The position numbers and the translations under genes were made by a program. The notes beneath the pieces were generated by a model that saw only the letters and a program-made list of their open reading frames with translations, was not told where the DNA came from and made no database searches. This document shows positions 2,172-46,038 of a stretch of 64,000 nucleotides of DNA, piece by piece. Position 1 is the first letter of the stretch. Every line of letters begins with the position of its first letter. Source of the DNA: an uncultured Candidatus Saccharibacteria bacterium (lineage in GTDB: Bacteria; Patescibacteriota; CAZHWT01); the NCBI GenBank assembly GCA_964554805.1, contig CAZKPX010000003.1:12366-76365 (forward strand). The letters run 5' to 3'.

Positions 2172-2384
2172 GACTGATCCCCTTTGTGTGTGAGTCTCTC
2201 CCAGAAACAGGTCTGGTAGGTGGAATATATCATATATTCTTTGATTGCACCATATAATGTACTGGAGAATACAGGGGGCAGCGGGGGTATTTAAAGGTGG
2301 TTGTCAGTTGGGGGCTTTTCTGGTACAATCGGTCCTGCTAATCTCCACTATGGAGTGCGCTGGTGTGGAATATTTAGACTATTA

Positions 2385-2459
2385 GCTGAGGTAGCTCAGT
2401 GGCAGAGCACTTCCATGGTAAGGAAGGGGTCGCGAGTTCAATCCTCGCCCTCAGCTCCA
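2385..2459 (+). tRNA. tRNA-Thr (anticodon GGT), CCA encoded
   Basis: cloverleaf read by eye: acceptor GCTGAGG/CCTCAGC, anticodon stem CTTCC/GGAAG, loop ATGGTAA, T-loop TTCAATC, 3' TCCA. Confidence 0.9.
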
Positions 2460-2569
2460 GAAAAGAACAGTTTTCTGGCGGCTGGATGTCGCTTTGTGAC
2501 ATGCATCTCCAGAAGAAGCTGCGCTTCTTCAGTTAGAAGTGAACAGAAGAAGTAAGAAGTTATTTTTGG

Positions 2570-2657
2570 GCAGGGCTGGCGGAGCGGTCAATCGCATCAG
2601 ACTGTAAATCTGACGTCTTCACTGACTACGGAGGTTCGAATCCTTCGCCCTGCACCA
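2570..2657 (+). tRNA. tRNA-Tyr (anticodon GTA), class II long variable arm, CCA encoded
   Basis: acceptor GCAGGGC/GCCCTGC, anticodon loop CTGTAAA, long variable arm, T-loop GGTTCGAATCC, 3' ACCA; 88 nt. Confidence 0.9.
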
Positions 2658-2801
2658 AGGATTTTTTCTCAACCAAAGTTGAGGAAAGATCCTTGGTATA
2701 GTGGTAGAGGTGAGGATTTCTTTGAGATTCGCCGACTAGGAGAGTACTATTTGAACAACGATTCAAATAGTATGAACTAGGAGTCTGACCAACGGGAAGT
2801 A
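2642..2801 (+). repeat. structured element A (about 160 nt), beginning with the 21-nt tRNA-Tyr 3' end CCTTCGCCCTGCACCAAGGAT; two conserved hairpins
   Basis: hairpin 1 at 2655-2696 (CCAAGGA...TCCTTGG); hairpin 2 at 2746-2771 (ACTATTTGAA-CAACGA-TTCAAATAGT); same architecture as unit B. Confidence 0.5.
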
Positions 2802-2965
2802 CCTTCGCCCTGCACCAAGGATATTCTCCTAATCTTTGATTGGAAGAATATCCTTGGTATTGAGCTTAGATGCGAACCTTCAGGTTCGATGCAGAGGAAA
2901 GTGCTATTTGCACAACGATGCAAATAGTGCGAACTCTAGCCCGACTAAAGGGAGGCATCCTTCAA
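2802..2965 (+). repeat. structured element B, a tandem paralogue of unit A that begins with the same 21-nt CCTTCGCCCTGCACCAAGGAT
   Basis: hairpin 1 at 2815-2857 (13-bp perfect stem CCAAGGATATTCT/AGAATATCCTTGG); hairpin 2 at 2904-2927 (CTATTTGCA-CAACGA-TGCAAATAG); stems differ from unit A only by compensatory changes. Confidence 0.5.
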
Positions 2966-3040
2966 TACTATTAGATTGCCGCGCTGCGCTTCCGCCAGGG
3001 GGCGGACAGGCAGCAATGACGGTAATGGCACGTTATATGT

Positions 3041-3117
3041 GCTGACTTAGCTCAGCTGGTTAGAGCAGCTGTTTTGTAAACAGCAGGTCGGGGGTTCGAA
3101 TCCCTCAGTCAGCTCCA
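3041..3117 (+). tRNA. tRNA-Thr (anticodon TGT), CCA encoded
   Basis: acceptor GCTGACT/AGTCAGC, anticodon stem GCTGT/ACAGC, loop TTTGTAA, T-loop TTCGAAT. Confidence 0.9.
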
Positions 3118-3292
3118 GATTGACATCGGTTAATCTGTCGCTGGATGCGCCAGAGGCGCATGCATCTCCAGATTATTCTAGTAAACGTAAGTTAGGGTTT
3201 TGACTGAAGCGTTACATTTGTTTTGAAATTAGGTATGGATTCCGGGTCTAGTCCGGAATGACATGCAATATTATTTTGTAGGAGTCGTTATT

Positions 3293-3469
3293 ATGGCTAA
3301 GAAAACCAGCCGGGTAATTGTTATCATGGCTAGCCCAGATGGCAAGCAGACTTATACTACTACCAAGAATCGTCGCAACACCGAAAAGAAGCTTGTGCTA
3401 AACAAGTATTCTCCGACTGAGCGCAAAGTGGTAGCTTATAAGGAAGTAAAAGTTAAAAAGGGTAAGTAA
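3293..3469 (+). CDS. rpmG: 50S ribosomal protein L33
   Basis: MAKKTSRVIVIMASPDGKQTYTTTKNRRNTEKKLVLNKYSPTERKVVAYKEVKVKK matches the L33 signature (YTTTKN...EKL...KY.P); ribosome-binding site TAGGAG upstream. Confidence 0.85.
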   Translation: MAKKTSRVIVIMASPDGKQTYTTTKNRRNTEKKLVLNKYSPTERKVVAYKEVKVKKGK

Positions 3470-3561
3470 ATAAAGTAAGCGTGTCATTCTGAACTTGGTT
3501 CAGAATCTTGGTCTACCGACTTTGATCCTGAAACGAGTCCAGGATGACATCTAGCTTACAT

Positions 3562-3635
3562 AGGGGCGTAGGCTAGAGGTAAACCGGTGGTCTCCAAAAC
3601 CGCATTCGGGGGTTCGATTCCCTCCGCCCCTGCCA
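3562..3635 (+). tRNA. tRNA-Trp (anticodon CCA)
   Basis: acceptor AGGGGCG/CGCCCCT, anticodon stem GTGGT/ACCGC, loop CTCCAAA, T-arm GGGGGTTCGATTCCCTC; the D-stem carries one mismatch. Confidence 0.75.
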
Positions 3636-3636
3636 A

Positions 3637-3676
3637 AATAACTCGGTTAGCTTCGGCTAAGCGAGTTATTTTTGTT
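3637..3676 (+). terminator. rho-independent terminator after tRNA-Trp
   Basis: AATAACTCGGTTAGC-TTCG-GCTAAGCGAGTTATT followed by TTTTTG. Confidence 0.7.
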
Positions 3677-3908
3677 GTGGACGGTTGAATTGAGTTGTTT
3701 TGGTTGTAGAGTTAAGTGGGAGAGGGCAGTATTTTAGTGTCAGATCTTCACTAATCCCGATAGTTAGCCTCGATTTACTTTCCGAAAGTTGCAGCGAGCC
3801 TGTTGCGGCTGCGACAGGTTATCTCTTTGTGGTGGATGGTTGTTGCGGCAACTTTTGGTACAATGTAGTGCATATGAATTTACATAACGATTCGCCTAAA
3901 TAATACAG

Positions 3909-4790
3909 ATGGAAACTGAAACAAAGCAATTAATTGATGCTATCCGAACTACACCAATAGAGCAATTTGAGTTGAGAACGGAAGATGGAGCTCTCGAAAA
4001 TTTGCTTACGGATACTCTCGAAATTAGCATAGAGACTCTAACTGATGATGAGCGGAAAACATTATCACTACATTTTATTGGTCGAACGCACAGATCTGAT
4101 TTTGATCTAGCAGTATTTGAACAACTGAGAGATTTTCGACCCAATGTTATCATTCATGAGTGCTGCGCTGAGACCCTTAAGCAGCTCCAGAATGTTGAAC
4201 TAATACAGGCGTCTTCCGTACTATCATTACCAATTGAGCTAGCAATTCCCGAAAAGGTCGCACCTACATGGGTTCAAGCCGCGGCCCTGGATGTAAGTAT
4301 TAATGATATATCTGGCGTAAACACACTAATAAGAAGTTCACGTGCGCAACCATTGCTTCGCAAAATGGATTTAACATTGGAAGAGCTAGCTCGCCAAACC
4401 GGATTTGAATTTCCAACACGGAGAACATTTGGATACCACACAATAAACCTGCTTAAAAAGTTAGGTATTGATGATATACGAGATGTTCAGCAGACTCCCG
4501 ATCTTGAATCTGCACTAATAGCTGATGCGAACACTATACAGATACGTGATAATGCAATGGTTCTAGATATATCTCGGATCGCTGGGAACTTAAGAAGGAA
4601 GATGGTAGGTGGATTATTGAGGATTGCTGTTATATCAGGCAATGATCATGCTCAGTTTTTGCAAAAGGAAGTTGAAAAGAAGGGTATTGTGGCAACAAGA
4701 TATAGCATTGTTGACGAAATAGAGCCTCATCCGTTGGATACACGAATTTATGAATCTCTTACTATTATAAGAAATCAGTCCACGAGGTAA
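3909..4790 (+). CDS. hypothetical protein (293 aa), first gene of the AT-rich island
   Basis: long ORF with no recognisable motif; base composition lower in GC than the flanking core genes. Confidence 0.5.
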   Translation: METETKQLIDAIRTTPIEQFELRTEDGALENLLTDTLEISIETLTDDERKTLSLHFIGRTHRSDFDLAVFEQLRDFRPNVIIHECCAETLKQLQNVELIQASSVLSLPIELAIPEKVAPTWVQAAALDVSINDISGVNTLIRSSRAQPLLRKMDLTLEELARQTGFEFPTRRTFGYHTINLLKKLGIDDIRDVQQTPDLESALIADANTIQIRDNAMVLDISRIAGNLRRKMVGGLLRIAVISGNDHAQFLQKEVEKKGIVATRYSIVDEIEPHPLDTRIYESLTIIRNQSTR

Positions 4791-4926
4791 AGAGGGTTAG
4801 TCGGCAGATTATTAATTCGTAAATGACTCGAGGTGTATTTTGTGATCGTAGGATGGGGTTGCGTGATTAAGCTTGCCTATTGAGATGGCTTGCTTGAAAA
4901 TCGATATGTATGGTAATAACAAGCTA

Positions 4927-5363
4927 ATGAAAATATTGAAGGTAAGTCGGTCTTCTTAGCTGGTCCAACGCCTCGATCAAAGGAGACTTTGTCATGGCGC
5001 AAAGAAGCTGTATCTTTGTTTAAGAATACTGGATTCGATCTAACAATCTTTGTGCCTGAAGATCGAAATGGCGTATGGGATGAATCGATAAATTTTGATC
5101 ATCAGATTGAATGGGAAGAGGAGGTTTTGCGAGCGGTTGATTGTATTTTGTTCTGGATTCCTCGTAATCTAACGACTATGCCGGCTTTTACAACTAATAT
5201 TGAGTTTGGTGCCTGGAAGGAATCGGGGAAAGTCGTTCTGGGATATCCTCCTGAAGCTGTGAAAATGGATTATCTAGAGTATTATGCTCAAAAGTTACAA
5301 ATTCCGACTAGCTCTACTTTGCCGAGTACAGTACAATTGGCTTGTAAAAAACTCGTTTTTTAG
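4927..5363 (+). CDS. nucleoside 2-deoxyribosyltransferase-like protein; start unresolved, probable 1-nt frameshift in an A-run or a non-ATG start
   Basis: the frame open from 4920 encodes ...NIEGKSVFLAGPTPRSKETLSWRKEAV...FWIPR...EFGAWKESGKVVLGYP (NDT-like KxxFLAGP and FWIP motifs), but the only nearby ATG (4927) is in the +1 frame; the track ORF starts at TTG 4989, downstream of the conserved N-terminal motif. Confidence 0.5.
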
Positions 5364-5411
5364 ATAAAGTCAGACAGTTTTTTGGGTGGTTTATTTTTGA
5401 GCCGGAGAACT

Positions 5412-5837
5412 ATGAAAGTTTATTTTGCTTGTTCCATTAGATCGGGTCGGCAGGATGCGGATTTGTATGCTGAGTTGGTGGCGTATATTAAAACTCGCGC
5501 CGAAGTCTTAACTGAGATATTTGCTGATGGGAAGCTGACTGTTGAAGGTTCATCAGGTACTAGTCGGGATATCTGGCAAACTGACATGGAATGGGTTAAG
5601 CAAGCGGATGTGATTATCGCTGAGGTGACTAATCCTAGCTTGGGCGTTGGGTATGAAATTGCTAAAGCCGAAGAATGGTCTAAGCCGGTATTGGCTTTGT
5701 TTCGGGACGACGGGAGCCGAAGGTTGTCAGCTATGATTGATGGAGCTCCTGGGGTAGAAGTGGCTCGGTATAGTCAGCTGGACGAGGCCAAGATGGCAAT
5801 TGATGGTTTTATGTCTTCTGCAAACTTGCGGGGATAG
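5412..5837 (+). CDS. 2'-deoxynucleoside 5'-phosphate N-hydrolase (DNPH1/Rcl-like, NDT superfamily)
   Basis: MKVYFACSIRSGRQDADLYAELVAYIKTRAEVLTE...ADVIIAEVTNPSLGVGYEIAKAEEWSKPVLALFR closely follows the DNPH1 family pattern (IYFCGSIRGGR...VVAEVTQPSLGVGYE). Confidence 0.8.
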   Translation: MKVYFACSIRSGRQDADLYAELVAYIKTRAEVLTEIFADGKLTVEGSSGTSRDIWQTDMEWVKQADVIIAEVTNPSLGVGYEIAKAEEWSKPVLALFRDDGSRRLSAMIDGAPGVEVARYSQLDEAKMAIDGFMSSANLRG

Positions 5838-5933
5838 TCGCTCAATTAATAAGGACTCAAAGCAAAAGCGCCTCCCGGAGATGGGGAGGCGCGTGATGGT
5901 GCTTTGTGGCGGAGTTTTTGTCGTGCCCTGCTC

Positions 5934-6314
5934 TCAGGGTCTTGGATTGGGGAGAGGACTGGGGTGCAGCCCGGATTGGCGGATAACCTCTCGGGCGATG
6001 TCTGGGTGGAATCTGCCCCGATCAACACACACGCCTTGGTTGTCTAGGAGGTGTAGGCGCACCCAGGGCCTACCTCCACTGTTGTCCCTGGTCAGATTGC
6101 TTCTGCTGAAACCAGGGAAGAAACTGAGCGGAGAAATACCCCAGCAGTCATCAGCCCGCTCGTTGAGCTTGTCTACGAAGGCCTGGGACTGATCCGGATT
6201 GAGGATGAGCTCGACGGGATCTTGGTCATCTTGGGGAAAGACGAGCGTGATTGGAGTCTCAGAACCTGGCTTGATGTCAAATGTTACACCATGCCCCTCG
6301 ATCGGTTTGGCCAT
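5934..6314 (-). CDS. hypothetical protein (126 aa)
   Basis: ORF with an AGGAG ribosome-binding site 8 nt upstream of the ATG on the minus strand. Confidence 0.45.
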   Translation of the reverse strand: MAKPIEGHGVTFDIKPGSETPITLVFPQDDQDPVELILNPDQSQAFVDKLNERADDCWGISPLSFFPGFSRSNLTRDNSGGRPWVRLHLLDNQGVCVDRGRFHPDIAREVIRQSGLHPSPLPNPRP

Positions 6315-6435
6315 GTTATTTTCTCCTATCTTCGGTCTCCGACAAAGCAGTTACTTATTCTATACCATACTATAGGTTGATAATCAAATTTTTTAGATAC
6401 TTTGCAAGCTGGTATATAGGAGCTATGCTGTATCT

Positions 6436-6792
6436 ATGAAGATTTATGTGACGCATTCGAGTAATTTTGACTATAAAGAAGACTTGTATAAGCCGCTGCG
6501 ACATTCGGAACTGAATGAGTTGCATGAGATATTTTTGCCGCATGAGGAGAGGGCTGAGCCGGTTAATACTCGGCAGGTGATTAAGGGAAGTGATTTGGTA
6601 TTGGCTGAAGTGTCGTTTTCGTCAACTGGGCAAGGGATTGAGATTGGGTGGGCTGATGCGGCTGGAGTGCCTATAATTTGCTTGTACAGGACTGGTTCAA
6701 TGGTGTCCTCGTCGCTTGCGTTAGTAGCGAAAGAGATGATTGGGTATGAAAATGTAGCTGATAAGCTAGGTGAAATTTTGGATCGTATTTGA
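6436..6792 (+). CDS. nucleoside 2-deoxyribosyltransferase-like protein (third NDT-superfamily paralogue)
   Basis: MKIYVTHSS...GSDLVLAEVSFSSTGQGIEIGWADAAGVPIICLY fits an NDT-like Rossmann core (acidic residue plus Gly-rich loop, then G.P). Confidence 0.6.
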   Translation: MKIYVTHSSNFDYKEDLYKPLRHSELNELHEIFLPHEERAEPVNTRQVIKGSDLVLAEVSFSSTGQGIEIGWADAAGVPIICLYRTGSMVSSSLALVAKEMIGYENVADKLGEILDRI

Positions 6793-6919
6793 ATGGGTAA
6801 GGCGCAGGTGCGATCTGAGGAGATGCAGCTGCGCCTTGGCGGAGGGTAGGGACGGCTAGTCGGTTTTGACTGCCGGGTAGGGTAGCACAACGATGGGCTC
6901 ATGACTTGACTCCAGAGAG

Positions 6920-7228
6920 CTAGGCGGCCACGACAGGTGCTGAGGACGACAGATTCTTGGCTTGGCCTAGACGTCTGAGCCAGGCCTTGGCTTCAACCTC
7001 GGCTAGGTCGTAGTATTGGGTGTCATTTGTTTTGACGTCCTTCATCCACTCGAAGTAGGTGGTTGGCAGATGCTCGAGGGCCTGTCGGCAGACTGCCTGG
7101 TTGTCAGCCATGACGGCCACGTGCTTCTCTTCAGCTATGATGACGACGGTGTTGTCGCGACTAAGCTGAGCTACATAAACTCCTTGGTTGAACGCCGGGA
7201 TGGGCGAACCGAACATTACGAACCGCAT
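6920..7228 (-). CDS. hypothetical protein (about 103 aa)
   Basis: ATG at 7228 with an AAAGGAGG ribosome-binding site; the longer track ORF extends into a GCGACRR repeat. Confidence 0.45.
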   Translation of the reverse strand: MRFVMFGSPIPAFNQGVYVAQLSRDNTVVIIAEEKHVAVMADNQAVCRQALEHLPTTYFEWMKDVKTNDTQYYDLAEVEAKAWLRRLGQAKNLSSSAPVVAA

Positions 7229-7392
7229 GGCACACCTCCTTTTGGTGTATGAAAACTGCCAAGCACGGTTGATATATTTAGTATAGTATGGATGTATGGT
7301 TTTTGGCAAGAGGCTTTTGTAGCGACGGGCGACGAGCGACATGGGGTAGCGCAGAGGGCTGAAAACTCAACACTCAAAACTTAAAACAGGTA

Positions 7393-8043
7393 CTAGACGC
7401 CGAGCAGGATGGCTGTGATCTGCCTGACGCTGGAGCCTAGTTGGCCTTGGAAACTAAAGAGAAACATAAAAACCAGAATGAAGCCGTAGGGTTCGATTTG
7501 ATCGAGTATATCCTTGTATTGGACCGGTAAGATAGTTCGGAGTATTCGGGAGCCATCTAGGGGTGGTATGGGGGCTAGATTGAATAGGGCTAACAGGATA
7601 TTGTAGAAGACAAAATAGAAAGCTATCAGGGCTACGATATCGGCGCCAGGGAAGGGTGAAATATTAATTATGCGGAACATTGTGGCAAAGATAATGGCCA
7701 GGGCAAAGTTGACGATAATACCGGCAATGGCAACCCAGAAATAGTCGCGCTCACCGCCACGCAGGTTGCGATAGTTGACTGGGACCGGCTTGGCCCAGCC
7801 AAAGACTACGGCTGATCCGAATAGTTGAAGGGCTAGGGGGAGCAGAATGGTGCCAAAAGGGTCAATGTGAGGAATAGGATTGAGGGTCAGCCTCCCCTCG
7901 AGCTTAGCAGTCATATCTCCACAGCGATAGGCGACATAGCCATGGGCAATTTCATGAAGGATAATACTGACAATGACAGCCACGAAGGGAATGATGGCTG
8001 CTAGGAGTGGGTAGTTGAGAAAAGCGGATTCGAGTAGATTCAT
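7393..8043 (-). CDS. site-2 protease family zinc metalloprotease (peptidase M50B)
   Basis: HEIAHGYVA and FNLAPIPPLDGSRIL motifs with several transmembrane segments. Confidence 0.8.
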   Translation of the reverse strand: MNLLESAFLNYPLLAAIIPFVAVIVSIILHEIAHGYVAYRCGDMTAKLEGRLTLNPIPHIDPFGTILLPLALQLFGSAVVFGWAKPVPVNYRNLRGGERDYFWVAIAGIIVNFALAIIFATMFRIINISPFPGADIVALIAFYFVFYNILLALFNLAPIPPLDGSRILRTILPVQYKDILDQIEPYGFILVFMFLFSFQGQLGSSVRQITAILLGV

Positions 8044-8315
8044 GTTTTAGGATATAGGAGTTAGAATATTGAATATGGTGGCGACGGGCGACGAGAACGA
8101 GCGACGGGATTATAATATCAAATCTGACACAGATGCTGCCTTGGTATTGCAATGAGGTAAGCAATCTGGTATAGTTGGTCTCGCTTGGTTAGGAACATGT
8201 TTGACTAGAGATAAGTATAGCATGTCTCGGCTGGGTAGTTCTATTTGAAAGCTGTTCTGAATAGATCCGGAAAATAAGTTGCGGATGACATTTTTTAGAA
8301 CGAATGGTAAACATT

Positions 8316-8678: not shown

Positions 8679-8712
8679 AACCCTGTCGAGAGATAGGGTT
8701 TTTTGTTGTCTG
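8679..8712 (+). terminator. terminator hairpin after rpmB
   Basis: AAACCCT-loop-AGGGTTT followed by a T-run. Confidence 0.55.
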
Positions 8713-8848
8713 GAATGTTGGGGATGAGGGGAGGTGGGGTTATTTGTATCGGGTCATTGCGAGGATCCGCCAGCTGGCGGAGACGTGGCAATCTAGGGGG
8801 GGGTATGAAGTGCATTTTTGGCTCAAGGTGTGGTGTCACTATATCTGT

Positions 8849-8948
8849 CCTGGATTGCCACTCCGCCAGTCGGCGGATCGCAATGACATTGCAGGGGGCA
8901 TTATTGTTTGTCCTGGATTGCCGCTCCGCCAGTTGGCGGATCGCAATG
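8849..8948. repeat. two tandem copies of a REP-like element CTGGATTGCCRCTCCGCCAGTYGGCGGATCGCAATGAC
   Basis: copies at about 8849-8887 and 8912-8948; a third near-identical copy at 23294-23330; palindromic core TCCGCCAGYTGGCGGA. Confidence 0.7.
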
Positions 8949-9103
8949 ACGGGGGTGATGGCTGAGGTAGAGGATGATCTTCTTTGTTATATTTTGATAT
9001 ACTCATAATTAAATCTTTAAGCGACGAGAACGAGCGACGAGGAAAGCTTTAAGGTATGCTGGTATTTATGAATTGTCGGTCAATTTTTACAACATTGCCG
9101 CAG

Positions 9104-45315: not shown

Positions 45316-46038
45316 TTAAAGGTTAAAATCTGACCAACCTCGGAGGTTATCGCCCCAGAGAACCTCCGAGGTTGGTTTGTTTGTGGCTAGGAGTCTTTGG
45401 TAATCTGCGTTGTCCGTTATAAAGCGAAGATAGCTTTGTTTAGAAGGGAATTCGCATAATATAGAAGTGTTATCACAAGAAGATGCCAGCTTTGATGAAG
45501 CTTGCTCTGAGATATAGGCTGATATAGATGACCATGGGTATGCTAGGCAGCCTTCCACTGTTTTGCTAATCGAACTTGCGTACGGATTTAGATGAATATA
45601 TCTTGATGTATGGAGGAGTTGTTCTTTGCTGCTGATATGTACGGCCTTGAATTGTGTGGAGAAAAGAGGGCCTTGGCGTTTATTCAGCTGATTAAAGTAC
45701 TTGGTGTAGCTGTTTTGAAATAGACTGAGATAGTGAGAAATTCCATTTTGGCTATTTTGTCTTAACAGTAAGTGGAAATGATTTGGCATAAGACAGTAGG
45801 CGATAATATCAACTTTTTGATCTGCGTTATTGTTATTGCTGAGCAGCCCACTCCTTGCGATTAGGGTCTGTCGAATATAGCTACTGAAGCTGATGGGCTG
45901 CGACTTAAGGTAGAACTCAAGTGTGCTCATTGCTCGCTGATAGTGAAGATTGCTGGCAAAGGTTAGTTGGTGATTCTGGCCTCTATTATAGACATGGTAT
46001 ATCTGGCCGTTTTGTAGGGGGAGTTGTCGACGAGGCAT
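45316..46038 (-). CDS. REP-associated tyrosine transposase (RAYT; IS200-like Y1 transposase)
   Basis: YHVYNRG, LMPNHFHLL (HuH) and RYIHLNP (catalytic Tyr region) motifs. Confidence 0.75.
   Translation of the reverse strand: MPRRQLPLQNGQIYHVYNRGQNHQLTFASNLHYQRAMSTLEFYLKSQPISFSSYIRQTLIARSGLLSNNNNADQKVDIIAYCLMPNHFHLLLRQNSQNGISHYLSLFQNSYTKYFNQLNKRQGPLFSTQFKAVHISSKEQLLHTSRYIHLNPYASSISKTVEGCLAYPWSSISAYISEQASSKLASSCDNTSILCEFPSKQSYLRFITDNADYQRLLATNKPTSEVLWGDNLRGWSDFNL

Follow-up and report, generated by a model that had tools for sequence, protein, structure and literature searches.

Does the short run of genes directly downstream of a tRNA-Trp gene in an uncultured Candidatus Saccharibacteria bacterium, a small parasite with a reduced genome, represent an integrated mobile island, or a chromosomal segment holding enzymes of ordinary nucleotide processing? 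The question arose in a 64,000-nt stretch of contig CAZKPX010000003.1 (assembly GCA_964554805.1), called the window below, in which 3.75 kb with six open reading frames (ORF1 to ORF6) separates the tRNA-Trp gene from the gene for an M50-family peptidase. A first-pass annotation of the same DNA had described this block as an AT-rich island carrying three genes of the nucleoside 2-deoxyribosyltransferase (NDT) superfamily, meant either for salvage or as a phage-like DNA-modification module. On balance we favor ordinary nucleotide processing by three genes of this N-glycosidase superfamily, located in a segment that varies among Saccharibacteria lineages, over a phage-derived island. We place a good deal less confidence in the three genes forming a coordinated module, and the substrates and physiological role that we propose for the enzymes, like any joint action, are predictions. 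The three genes are as follows:

4920-5363 (conserved frame), plus strand: ORF2, a PF15891 (Nuc_deoxyri_tr2) gene; 124 aa when read from TTG 4989
5412-5837, plus strand: ORF3, 141 aa, predicted DNPH1/Rcl-type 2'-deoxynucleoside 5'-phosphate N-hydrolase
6436-6792, plus strand: ORF5, 118 aa, member of a small NDT/DNPH1-related family

The three superfamily members

On the evidence of its sequence, ORF3 is a clear orthologue of DNPH1/Rcl. It scores 43.7 bits against PF05014 (Pfam cut-off 28.8) and matches the solved rat (2khz, 4fyh) and human (8os9, 9da1) DNPH1/Rcl proteins at E = 2.5e-28 to 2e-25 (phmmer against PDB), the best match being 2khz over residues 2-126 of 141. Using the residue roles published for DNPH1 (PMC10603095), Y4, D58 and E82 align with the human catalytic triad Y24/D80/E104, and S76 and S106 with the phosphate-binding serines S98 and S128; all are invariant in the family alignment (A5). 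E35 corresponds to the water-activating E55 of the human protein, and the SIRxGR loop is retained. The base-contacting His56 of human DNPH1 is replaced by Ile36 in ORF3 and its closest clade (motif TEIFADG), with remoter bacterial homologues retaining TEH, and the Glu55-His56 helical element is only half kept (Glu present, His absent). ORF3 would most likely hydrolyze 2'-deoxynucleoside 5'-monophosphates (dNMPs) to the free base and deoxyribose 5-phosphate through a covalent Glu-deoxyribosyl intermediate, following the double displacement of DNPH1, possibly with a base preference shifted by the His-to-Ile change.

ORF5 is more divergent from PF05014, matching it only partially (residues 38-89) at 21 bits, under the cut-off of 28.8. 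Its relationship becomes visible by profile comparison. The alignment of its family (A4; n = 86 homologues of about 120 aa) matches the DNPH1 family (A5) in hhalign with 98% probability and E = 2e-13 over 121 columns, the full length; reciprocal hidden Markov model (HMM) matches between ORF3 and ORF5 range from 1e-07 to 1e-08; and the family profile matches DNPH1, MilB and BlsM in PDB. The Tyr after strand 1 (Y4) and the invariant nucleophile Glu (E69, in AEVSxxSTGxGIE) are retained (A4). The phosphate loop SIRGGR is replaced by HSSxFDY in this family, no Asp occupies the position aligned with DNPH1 D80, serines possibly matching S98 and S128 are present, and H7, Y18, P20, P35 and Y104 are invariant residues specific to the family. 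We assign ORF5 to the NDT/DNPH1 (DrHyd) superfamily; the description of 6436-6792 as a second NDT-like gene holds at that level, although the PF05014 threshold is not reached. The protein most likely would cleave or transfer the N-glycosidic bond of some nucleoside or nucleotide. Its retrieved homologues are in Patescibacteria-like contigs, with one source name given ("Microgenomates group bacterium").

ORF2 matches PF15891 at 39.9 bits (cut-off 30) and has 355 homologues. Its match to PDB entry 4mcj (1.9e-06) improves to 1.3e-09 with the family profile, for which 4mcj is the only PDB match. The invariant W, R, E and Q and the TTN-E-G residues of PF15891 are retained (A2). In hhalign, the PF15891 family (A2) and the DNPH1 family (A5) do not match significantly (probability 0.6%); the PF15891 domain of Bacillus phage G gp334 matches PF05014 weakly over the whole domain (E = 9.8e-4). 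The proposed place of ORF2 in the superfamily rests on its Pfam family, on the motif correspondence and on this weak gp334 match. PF15891 and PF05014 belong to one Pfam clan.

The 5' end of ORF2 is unusual. Relatives are 150-160 aa long and start MKxIYAxE...GKSxFLAGPTPRS (A2); homology to them begins at about position 4929, and the FLAGPTPRS motif, nearly invariant in the family, is encoded at 4953-4979. Upstream, two stop codons (TAA TAA, 4914-4919) close the conserved frame, whose first ATG, GTG or TTG is TTG 4989, 3' of FLAGPTPRS. A near-perfect AAGGAG is situated only 3 nt 5' of this TTG. ATG 4927, immediately followed by an AAAA run, lies in the +1 frame, which stops at 4957; the sole in-frame near-cognate start for the N-terminus is ATT 4935. 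When one A is added to the AAAA run after ATG 4927, an open frame results that reads MKNIEGKSVFLAGP. Translation of the conserved N-terminus (IEGKSVFLAGPTPR) would require a single-base frameshift or initiation at ATT. The first-pass annotation had read 4927-5363 as one NDT-like gene, which is not borne out, as this span mixes two frames and ATG 4927 is out of frame. The same 5' region is found, identical, in the window and in three short contigs from three sequencing runs that were assembled independently (L001-L003; four assemblies). ORF2 would therefore be one of the following: disrupted at its 5' end in the recent past, initiated at ATT 4935, or translated into a truncated product that is missing the first strand of the fold.

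The presence of three NDT/DNPH1 superfamily members is thus upheld (ORF2, less firmly, through PF15891, ORF3 through PF05014 and ORF5 through profile comparison), and they are divergent as claimed, although the row is interrupted by ORF4 on the opposite strand. They belong to three separate families and are not recent tandem duplicates: they are far too divergent for that, and profile comparison does not even connect ORF2 with ORF3 and ORF5. Searches with the family profiles found no further copies of the three families in the 64-kb window.

The segment between tRNA-Trp and the M50 peptidase gene

The other features of the block and its left flank are listed here by position:

2385-2459, plus strand: tRNA-Thr(ggt) (ARAGORN)
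2570-2657, plus strand: tRNA-Tyr (ARAGORN)
3041-3117, plus strand: tRNA-Thr(tgt) (ARAGORN)
3562-3635, plus strand: tRNA-Trp(cca), left boundary of the variable block (ARAGORN; Rfam tRNA, 56.8 bits)
3636-3675, plus strand: putative terminator of the tRNA/L33 transcript, a stem-loop and T-run directly 3' of tRNA-Trp (reading of the sequence, inverted repeat I1)
3909-4790, plus strand: ORF1, 293 aa, predicted hydrolase with a TIKI/TraB/ChaN-like fold
5868-5892, minus strand: predicted ORF4 terminator, a GC-rich hairpin and T-tail between the convergent ORF3 and ORF4 (terminator scan)
5934-6314, minus strand: ORF4, 126 aa, orphan protein with a GGAG Shine-Dalgarno site
6920-7342, minus strand: ORF6, 140 aa, hypothetical protein
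7393-8043, minus strand: M50-family peptidase gene, right boundary of the block (Pfam and synteny)

The tRNA cluster has the order Thr-Tyr-Thr-L33-Trp, with the L33 gene between tRNA-Thr(tgt) and tRNA-Trp, which is last. A permissive Rfam search over 2200-8300 returned the four tRNAs and nothing else. The stem-loop at 3636-3675 is missing from the consensus terminator scan, and its role as a terminator is one that we infer. The six-ORF arrangement is not an artefact of one assembly, because contigs L001-L003 encode the same six proteins, identical in sequence. A gap of 48 nt separates ORF2 from ORF3, and the two may share a transcript. The three superfamily genes do not form one operon, because ORF5 is separated from the other two by opposite-strand ORF4 with its own Shine-Dalgarno site and terminator. 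Codon statistics prefer the minus-strand frame of ORF4 over the overlapping plus-strand ORF, and the protein is a cluster of one in a collection of 15 billion. Neither ORF4 nor ORF6 has a family or PDB match, their clusters being single-member or nearly so, and NCBIfam, PHROGs and PADLOC gave no significant match for any of the six ORFs. Among 20 other window proteins scanned for nucleotide-metabolism genes, there were housekeeping genes only; a transketolase is encoded in the window.

In composition, the block is a mosaic. ORF1-ORF2 (3909-5363) have 40.0% GC, placing them in the lowest 0.1% of same-size windows; each of the two has a GC content of 0.40, and GC at third codon positions (GC3) is 0.30 for ORF1 (z = -3.6) and 0.34 for ORF2 (z = -2.9). 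ORF3 and ORF5 are typical of the window, and ORF4 and ORF6 are GC-rich (GC3 z of about +2 to +2.5; GC of ORF4 0.56). The label of AT-rich island therefore suits ORF1-ORF2 only, and not the block overall, whose GC content of 45.4% (vs. 47.4% for the window) falls at the 9th percentile of same-size windows. GC skew keeps the same positive sign through the block and both flanks, which argues that nothing has been recently inverted. Over the window as a whole (1-64000), skew is positive in every 1-kb interval regardless of gene strand (+0.07 to +0.45, mean about +0.25). The related locus L170, described next, has the same strong skew, and this strand asymmetry is unusually strong.

Comparison with retrieved loci places the block in a conserved frame. 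The M50 peptidase has its best matches in Saccharibacteria metagenome-assembled genomes, and the right flank (M50, L28, HIT, fmt, def, mreB/C/D and PBP2-like genes) is collinear in L004, L005 and L061, with M50 synteny also in L170. The last is the closest relative retrieved (M50 74%, L28 82% and HIT 69% identical) and has the same arrangement as the window: L33, tRNA-Trp, 5.3 kb of genes, and then M50 on the opposite strand. Between these borders lie two unknown genes, an ORF2 orthologue (65-68% identical) with a GC content normal for its genome, genes for Fic, NT5C and ParB-CE proteins, and a weak ORF6 homologue (25% identity) in the same position next to M50. In L004 and L005 this tRNA cluster comes immediately after M50 in the same orientation, an arrangement inverted relative to that of the window; the block 3' of tRNA-Trp in L004 contains a GNAT gene and genes for an NT5C 5'(3')-deoxynucleotidase, a ParB-CE protein and a coupling-protein-like ATPase. 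Another contig, L174, joins NT5C, ParB-CE and an ORF2 orthologue; it is short and shows no tRNA. NT5C and ParB-CE make up a conserved divergent gene pair (L004:13147-14454, L170:3863-5195, L174:845-2170), and the window has the DNPH1-type gene and ORF5 instead.

None of ORF1, ORF3, ORF4 and ORF5 has a counterpart at this position in L004, L005, L170 or L174. ORF2, and perhaps ORF6, is an older resident of the segment, and the other four genes are lineage-specific among the relatives reached. The tRNA cluster and the downstream block were inverted relative to M50 at some time in the history of the clade; GC skew cannot date this inversion against L004, because it is uniform in both arrangements. 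The block is syntenic in part: the tRNA-Trp and M50 borders and the ORF2 orthologue recur in L170, and the other interior genes mostly differ. Because L170 shares the frame and ORF2 but otherwise has different genes, we regard the block as a lineage-variable chromosomal segment with gene turnover, and not as a bounded integrative element. Piecemeal horizontal gain of single genes, especially ORF1-ORF2, is plausible.

The proposal of an island integrated at a tRNA hotspot is not supported in the form given, considering also the uniform skew of the block and the frame shared with L170. Searches with Pfam, NCBIfam and PHROGs revealed no integrase, recombinase or transposase domain in ORF1-ORF6. 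The att-like repeat of the tRNA-Trp 3' end for which the first-pass annotation had suggested looking does not occur: the terminal 25-mer, with up to 3 mismatches allowed, is present once in the 64 kb, and a repeat search over 2300-8200 found none for tRNA-Trp. Repeats do occur at another tRNA of the cluster. The 3' end of tRNA-Tyr, together with the hairpin after it (2642-2699), recurs some 160 nt further on (2802-2860), with 93% identity over 27 nt. Both copies are followed by another repeat (2743-2759 and 2900-2916), and the Tyr-Thr spacer is 383 nt in the window vs. 49 nt in L004. This may be a tandem duplication of part of a tRNA or an old att-like scar. Elsewhere in the window, a 240-aa ORF on the minus strand (45316-46038) has an IS200-like Y1 transposase domain (PF01797). 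Between the L28 and HIT genes, ORFs overlap on both strands (8703-9008 and 8744-9006) and contain the protein-level repeat PGLPLRQxADRND twice; this intergenic region (8703-9008) is probably repetitive non-coding DNA.

ORF1, the first gene of the block, belongs to a very small family, with 10 detectable relatives among 1.84 billion cluster representatives (11 members in alignment A1). It has no Pfam, NCBIfam, PADLOC or PHROG match, and comparisons of the family profile with PDB and of its members with Pfam gave only noise. Structure prediction, suggested earlier for this 293-aa protein, yielded a confident AlphaFold2 model when the 11-sequence alignment was supplied (pLDDT 90.2, pTM 0.89; pLDDT 34 from the single sequence). 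The best fold matches of this model are ChaN in PDB (2g5g; Foldseek probability 1.00, E = 3.5e-3) and a Marseillevirus TraB-family protein in a viral library (probability 1.00, E = 3.6e-4), with low TM scores of 0.36-0.45 across both. H61, E84, R151, R213, N227 and H247 are invariant (A1). ChaN is a recognized member of the TIKI superfamily, in which active enzymes use a His-Glu center (PMC6254334). We read ORF1 as a putative new, divergent and very rare family of TIKI/TraB-like hydrolases. Its relatives are found in unrelated contexts, and no functional link to the NDT-fold genes was seen.

Viral relatives of ORF2 and NAD/ADP-ribose genes

A phage DNA-hypermodification module was the other reading proposed for the block. 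ORF1, ORF3 and ORF5 have none in 50,697 GenBank phage records, and in IMG/VR the ORF3 and ORF5 family profiles found two relatives and one, respectively. The ORF2 family has six matches in GenBank phages, including gp334 of Bacillus phage G, and at least 89 confirmed relatives in IMG/VR, many of them on contigs of 200-600 kb. The closest phage homologue is 59% identical to ORF2; its contig also carries T4 gp2-like and endonuclease VII-like genes, and a gene for nicotinamide adenine dinucleotide (NAD) kinase lies 2 kb from it.

A survey of 80 viral loci (L177-L256, some of them near-duplicates) contained 77 ORFs with a PF15891 domain match; examples are L178:4956-6104, L200:4437-5441, L250-L253, L238 and L240. 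About 24 of the 77 have a C-terminal extension of about 240 aa, which matches Nudix in L178 (4956-6104) and is NUDIX by annotation only in gp334, where no Pfam NUDIX domain was found. At least three others of the 77 are fused to a calcineurin-like phosphoesterase domain. The commonest neighbors within 4 kb, in raw counts, are NAMPT (9 loci), Macro (8), Sir2 (6) and TROVE/Ro60 (6), and NAMPT directly adjoins the PF15891 gene in L250-L253. These contexts hint at NAD/ADP-ribose chemistry rather than DNA hypermodification, and together with the scarcity of phage relatives for ORF1, ORF3 and ORF5 they leave the hypermodification module without support.

One alternative built on these contexts is that ORF2 encodes an N-glycosidase or base-exchange enzyme for ribonucleotides of the nicotinamide/ADP-ribose type, and not for deoxynucleosides, which would make the three-gene row functionally heterogeneous. 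We offer this tentatively and consider it improbable. It draws on the viral Nudix and phosphoesterase fusions, on the NAMPT, Macro and Sir2 neighbors and on the NAD-kinase gene near the closest phage homologue, as well as on a nearly invariant Phe that PF15891 proteins have where DNPH1 has Tyr24 (motif alignment, A2). In MilB, Phe at this position goes with ribose substrates (PMC10603095), and the DrHyd superfamily has a broad nucleotide range that extends to NAD+ and includes NADases and ADP-ribosyl cyclases (PMC9503650). However, no NAD-related gene adjoins ORF2 in the window, and in L170 and L174 its neighbors encode NT5C, ParB-CE and Fic proteins; jumbo phages often carry NAD genes in any case; and the Phe/Tyr correspondence comes from a motif alignment and not from a structure.

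More speculatively still, jumbo phages could pair a PF15891 nicotinamide/ADP-ribose N-glycosidase or base exchanger with NAMPT, Nudix/metallophosphoesterase, Macro and Sir2 proteins to rebuild or detoxify NAD-derived molecules, with Saccharibacteria keeping a chromosomal copy; more broadly, the three NDT-fold enzymes might each clear a different set of unwanted or modified (deoxy)nucleotides, taken up from the host, ahead of their entry into the cell's own pools. We consider this wider scheme unlikely. Our literature search found no mention of PF15891, no paper placing it with NAD/ADP-ribose genes, and none placing a deoxyribosyltransferase or DNPH1 with NAMPT in phages. This analysis had two by-products that are perhaps more useful than the original finding: the contextual association of PF15891 with NAD/ADP-ribose genes of large phages, and the very rare family of ORF1.

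Role of the three genes and comparison with known systems

Saccharibacteria lack de novo nucleotide synthesis (PMC10633639), and given this literature a salvage reading fits the organism. The three enzymes would release bases for re-use by phosphoribosyltransferases, and would feed sugar phosphate to central metabolism or clear unwanted (deoxy)nucleoside monophosphates from the pool. ORF2, if expressed, would act on a ribo-type substrate. Another dNMP enzyme, NT5C, recurs in the segment in L004, L170 and L174, which suggests that the segment tends to hold nucleotide-processing genes; in this clade it may collect small enzymes acting on mononucleotides. Saccharibacteria and other Patescibacteria depend on host nucleotides, and how these are processed is poorly known. 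If our preferred reading is correct, DNPH1-type dNMP hydrolases and the ORF5 family are candidate parts of this processing, through free bases, supply of deoxyribose phosphate or cleaning of the pool, and a segment linked to tRNA-Trp is a recurrent site of dNMP enzymes (DNPH1 in the window, the deoxynucleotidase NT5C in its relatives). Current views are not overturned; the enzymes are from known families, and no new mechanism was found.

A conserved three-gene module was considered and rejected, as the three families are never adjacent in any other retrieved locus. Among 80 metagenome loci that have a DNPH1 homologue (identity up to 70%), none has an ORF2 homologue or a separate ORF5 homologue; neighbors there are unrelated housekeeping genes (galactokinase, AsnC, Mur ligase, M20 peptidase), with Nudix in 6 loci only. 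ORF2 and ORF3 homologues are absent from the 5 loci with ORF5 homologues (3 proteins); there, each ORF5 homologue stands singly among housekeeping genes of a long contig. Likewise, no retrieved locus with an ORF2 homologue has an ORF3 or ORF5 homologue beside it.

Several points weigh against nucleotide processing by all three genes. Their juxtaposition is unseen in other retrieved loci, so there is no comparative support for their acting together; ORF2 may be a pseudogene, and the phage contexts of its family point to NAD/ADP-ribose chemistry more than to (deoxy)nucleotide salvage. With neither the phosphate loop nor a general-acid Asp, ORF5 might be no dNMP hydrolase at all, and ORF3, which does not have the base-positioning His of the human enzyme, could prefer other substrates. 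The literature yielded no biochemical data for bacterial members of the three families, and no paper linking deoxyribosyltransferase or DNPH1 with Patescibacteria.

As to how the genes came to lie here, it is possible, though we think rather unlikely, that the block, or at least AT-rich ORF1-ORF2, was acquired from a phage or mobile element targeting the tRNA cluster. Such an origin would accommodate the mosaic composition, the lowest GC of the window in ORF1-ORF2 while the L170 orthologue of ORF2 is typical, the four genes not seen at this position in relatives, and an ORF2 family abundant in phages at up to 59% identity; the duplicated tRNA-Tyr 3' end, 0.9 kb upstream, also indicates that the cluster has been a site of rearrangement. 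It is difficult to reconcile with a block in which genes for integrases, recombinases, transposases, structural proteins and replication are all missing, the tRNA-Trp 3' end is not repeated, and GC skew has the sign seen in the flanks. Moreover, the closest homologues of ORF2 (65-69% identical) are chromosomal, in the same neighborhood of related Saccharibacteria, and ORF3 and ORF5 are essentially without phage relatives.

A second alternative dispenses with any shared function: the genes could have become adjacent through turnover alone, in a segment prone to recombination, with the enzymes acting independently and ORF2 decaying. We doubt this explanation as well, while noting that it agrees with the independent distributions and contexts of the three families, with their not being one operon, with a conserved ORF2 N-terminus that has no canonical start, and with a segment that has been inverted and reshuffled in content among relatives. 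Set against it are the dNMP enzymes that relatives also hold in the segment, and an estimated probability of about 4e-5 that three such genes fall by chance within five consecutive genes of an approximately 1000-gene genome, assuming three copies genome-wide. Far less probable than either is an anti-phage or conflict system with DrHyd-fold NADase or nucleotide-depleting effectors. Some defence systems do use DrHyd domains as NADase effectors (PMC9503650), and the locus is variable, as defence islands are, but PADLOC gave no significant match (only SspF, E = 0.013, over 48 residues of ORF5), the three small single-domain enzymes are not accompanied by a sensor, an ATPase or a nuclease, ORF3 is closely orthologous to DNPH1, and ORF5 homologues are found in housekeeping contexts.

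Ordinary nucleotide processing thus remains our preferred reading, and it is informative to set the genes beside the systems they resemble. ORF3 is like DNPH1/Rcl in its full-length match, Tyr/Asp/Glu triad, water-activating Glu, both serines and SIRxGR loop; it differs in having Ile for His56 and in its host, a bacterium without de novo nucleotide synthesis, and the mammalian role of removing 5-hydroxymethyl-deoxyuridine monophosphate (hmdUMP) from the pool may not apply to it. ORF5 shares the fold and Glu nucleophile of MilB and BlsM, the N-glycosidases of cytidine monophosphate (CMP) and hydroxymethyl-CMP (4jem, 5vto; profile E = 1.5e-06 to 9e-03). Those proteins are 160-190 aa long and are encoded in nucleoside-antibiotic biosynthetic clusters, whereas ORF5 has 118 aa, no such cluster, and an N-terminal loop with HSS in place of the phosphate-binding Arg loop. 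With classical NDT (PF05014; Lactobacillus NDT, 7m5h) it has superfamily-level homology, the Tyr after strand 1 and the Glu nucleophile in common, but it falls under the Pfam cut-off and matches NDT structures weakly (E = 0.02-0.07).

ORF2 has the invariant residues of other PF15891 proteins, such as the uncharacterized 4mcj and phage G gp334, but is single-domain with a disrupted or non-canonically initiated 5' end, whereas the phage proteins are often Nudix or metallophosphoesterase fusions. ORF1 resembles the TIKI/TraB/ChaN/erythromycin-esterase superfamily in its fold matches in two libraries and its invariant His, Glu and His; it differs in having no sequence-profile match, in the TM scores of 0.36-0.45 and in one invariant Glu vs. 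a 2His/2Glu motif. Finally, like tRNA-linked islands and prophages, the block lies directly 3' of a tRNA gene, varies among relatives and is partly atypical in composition; unlike them, it has neither an integrase nor a tRNA-Trp att duplication, spans 3.75 kb, and has conserved borders and one interior gene in common with a relative.

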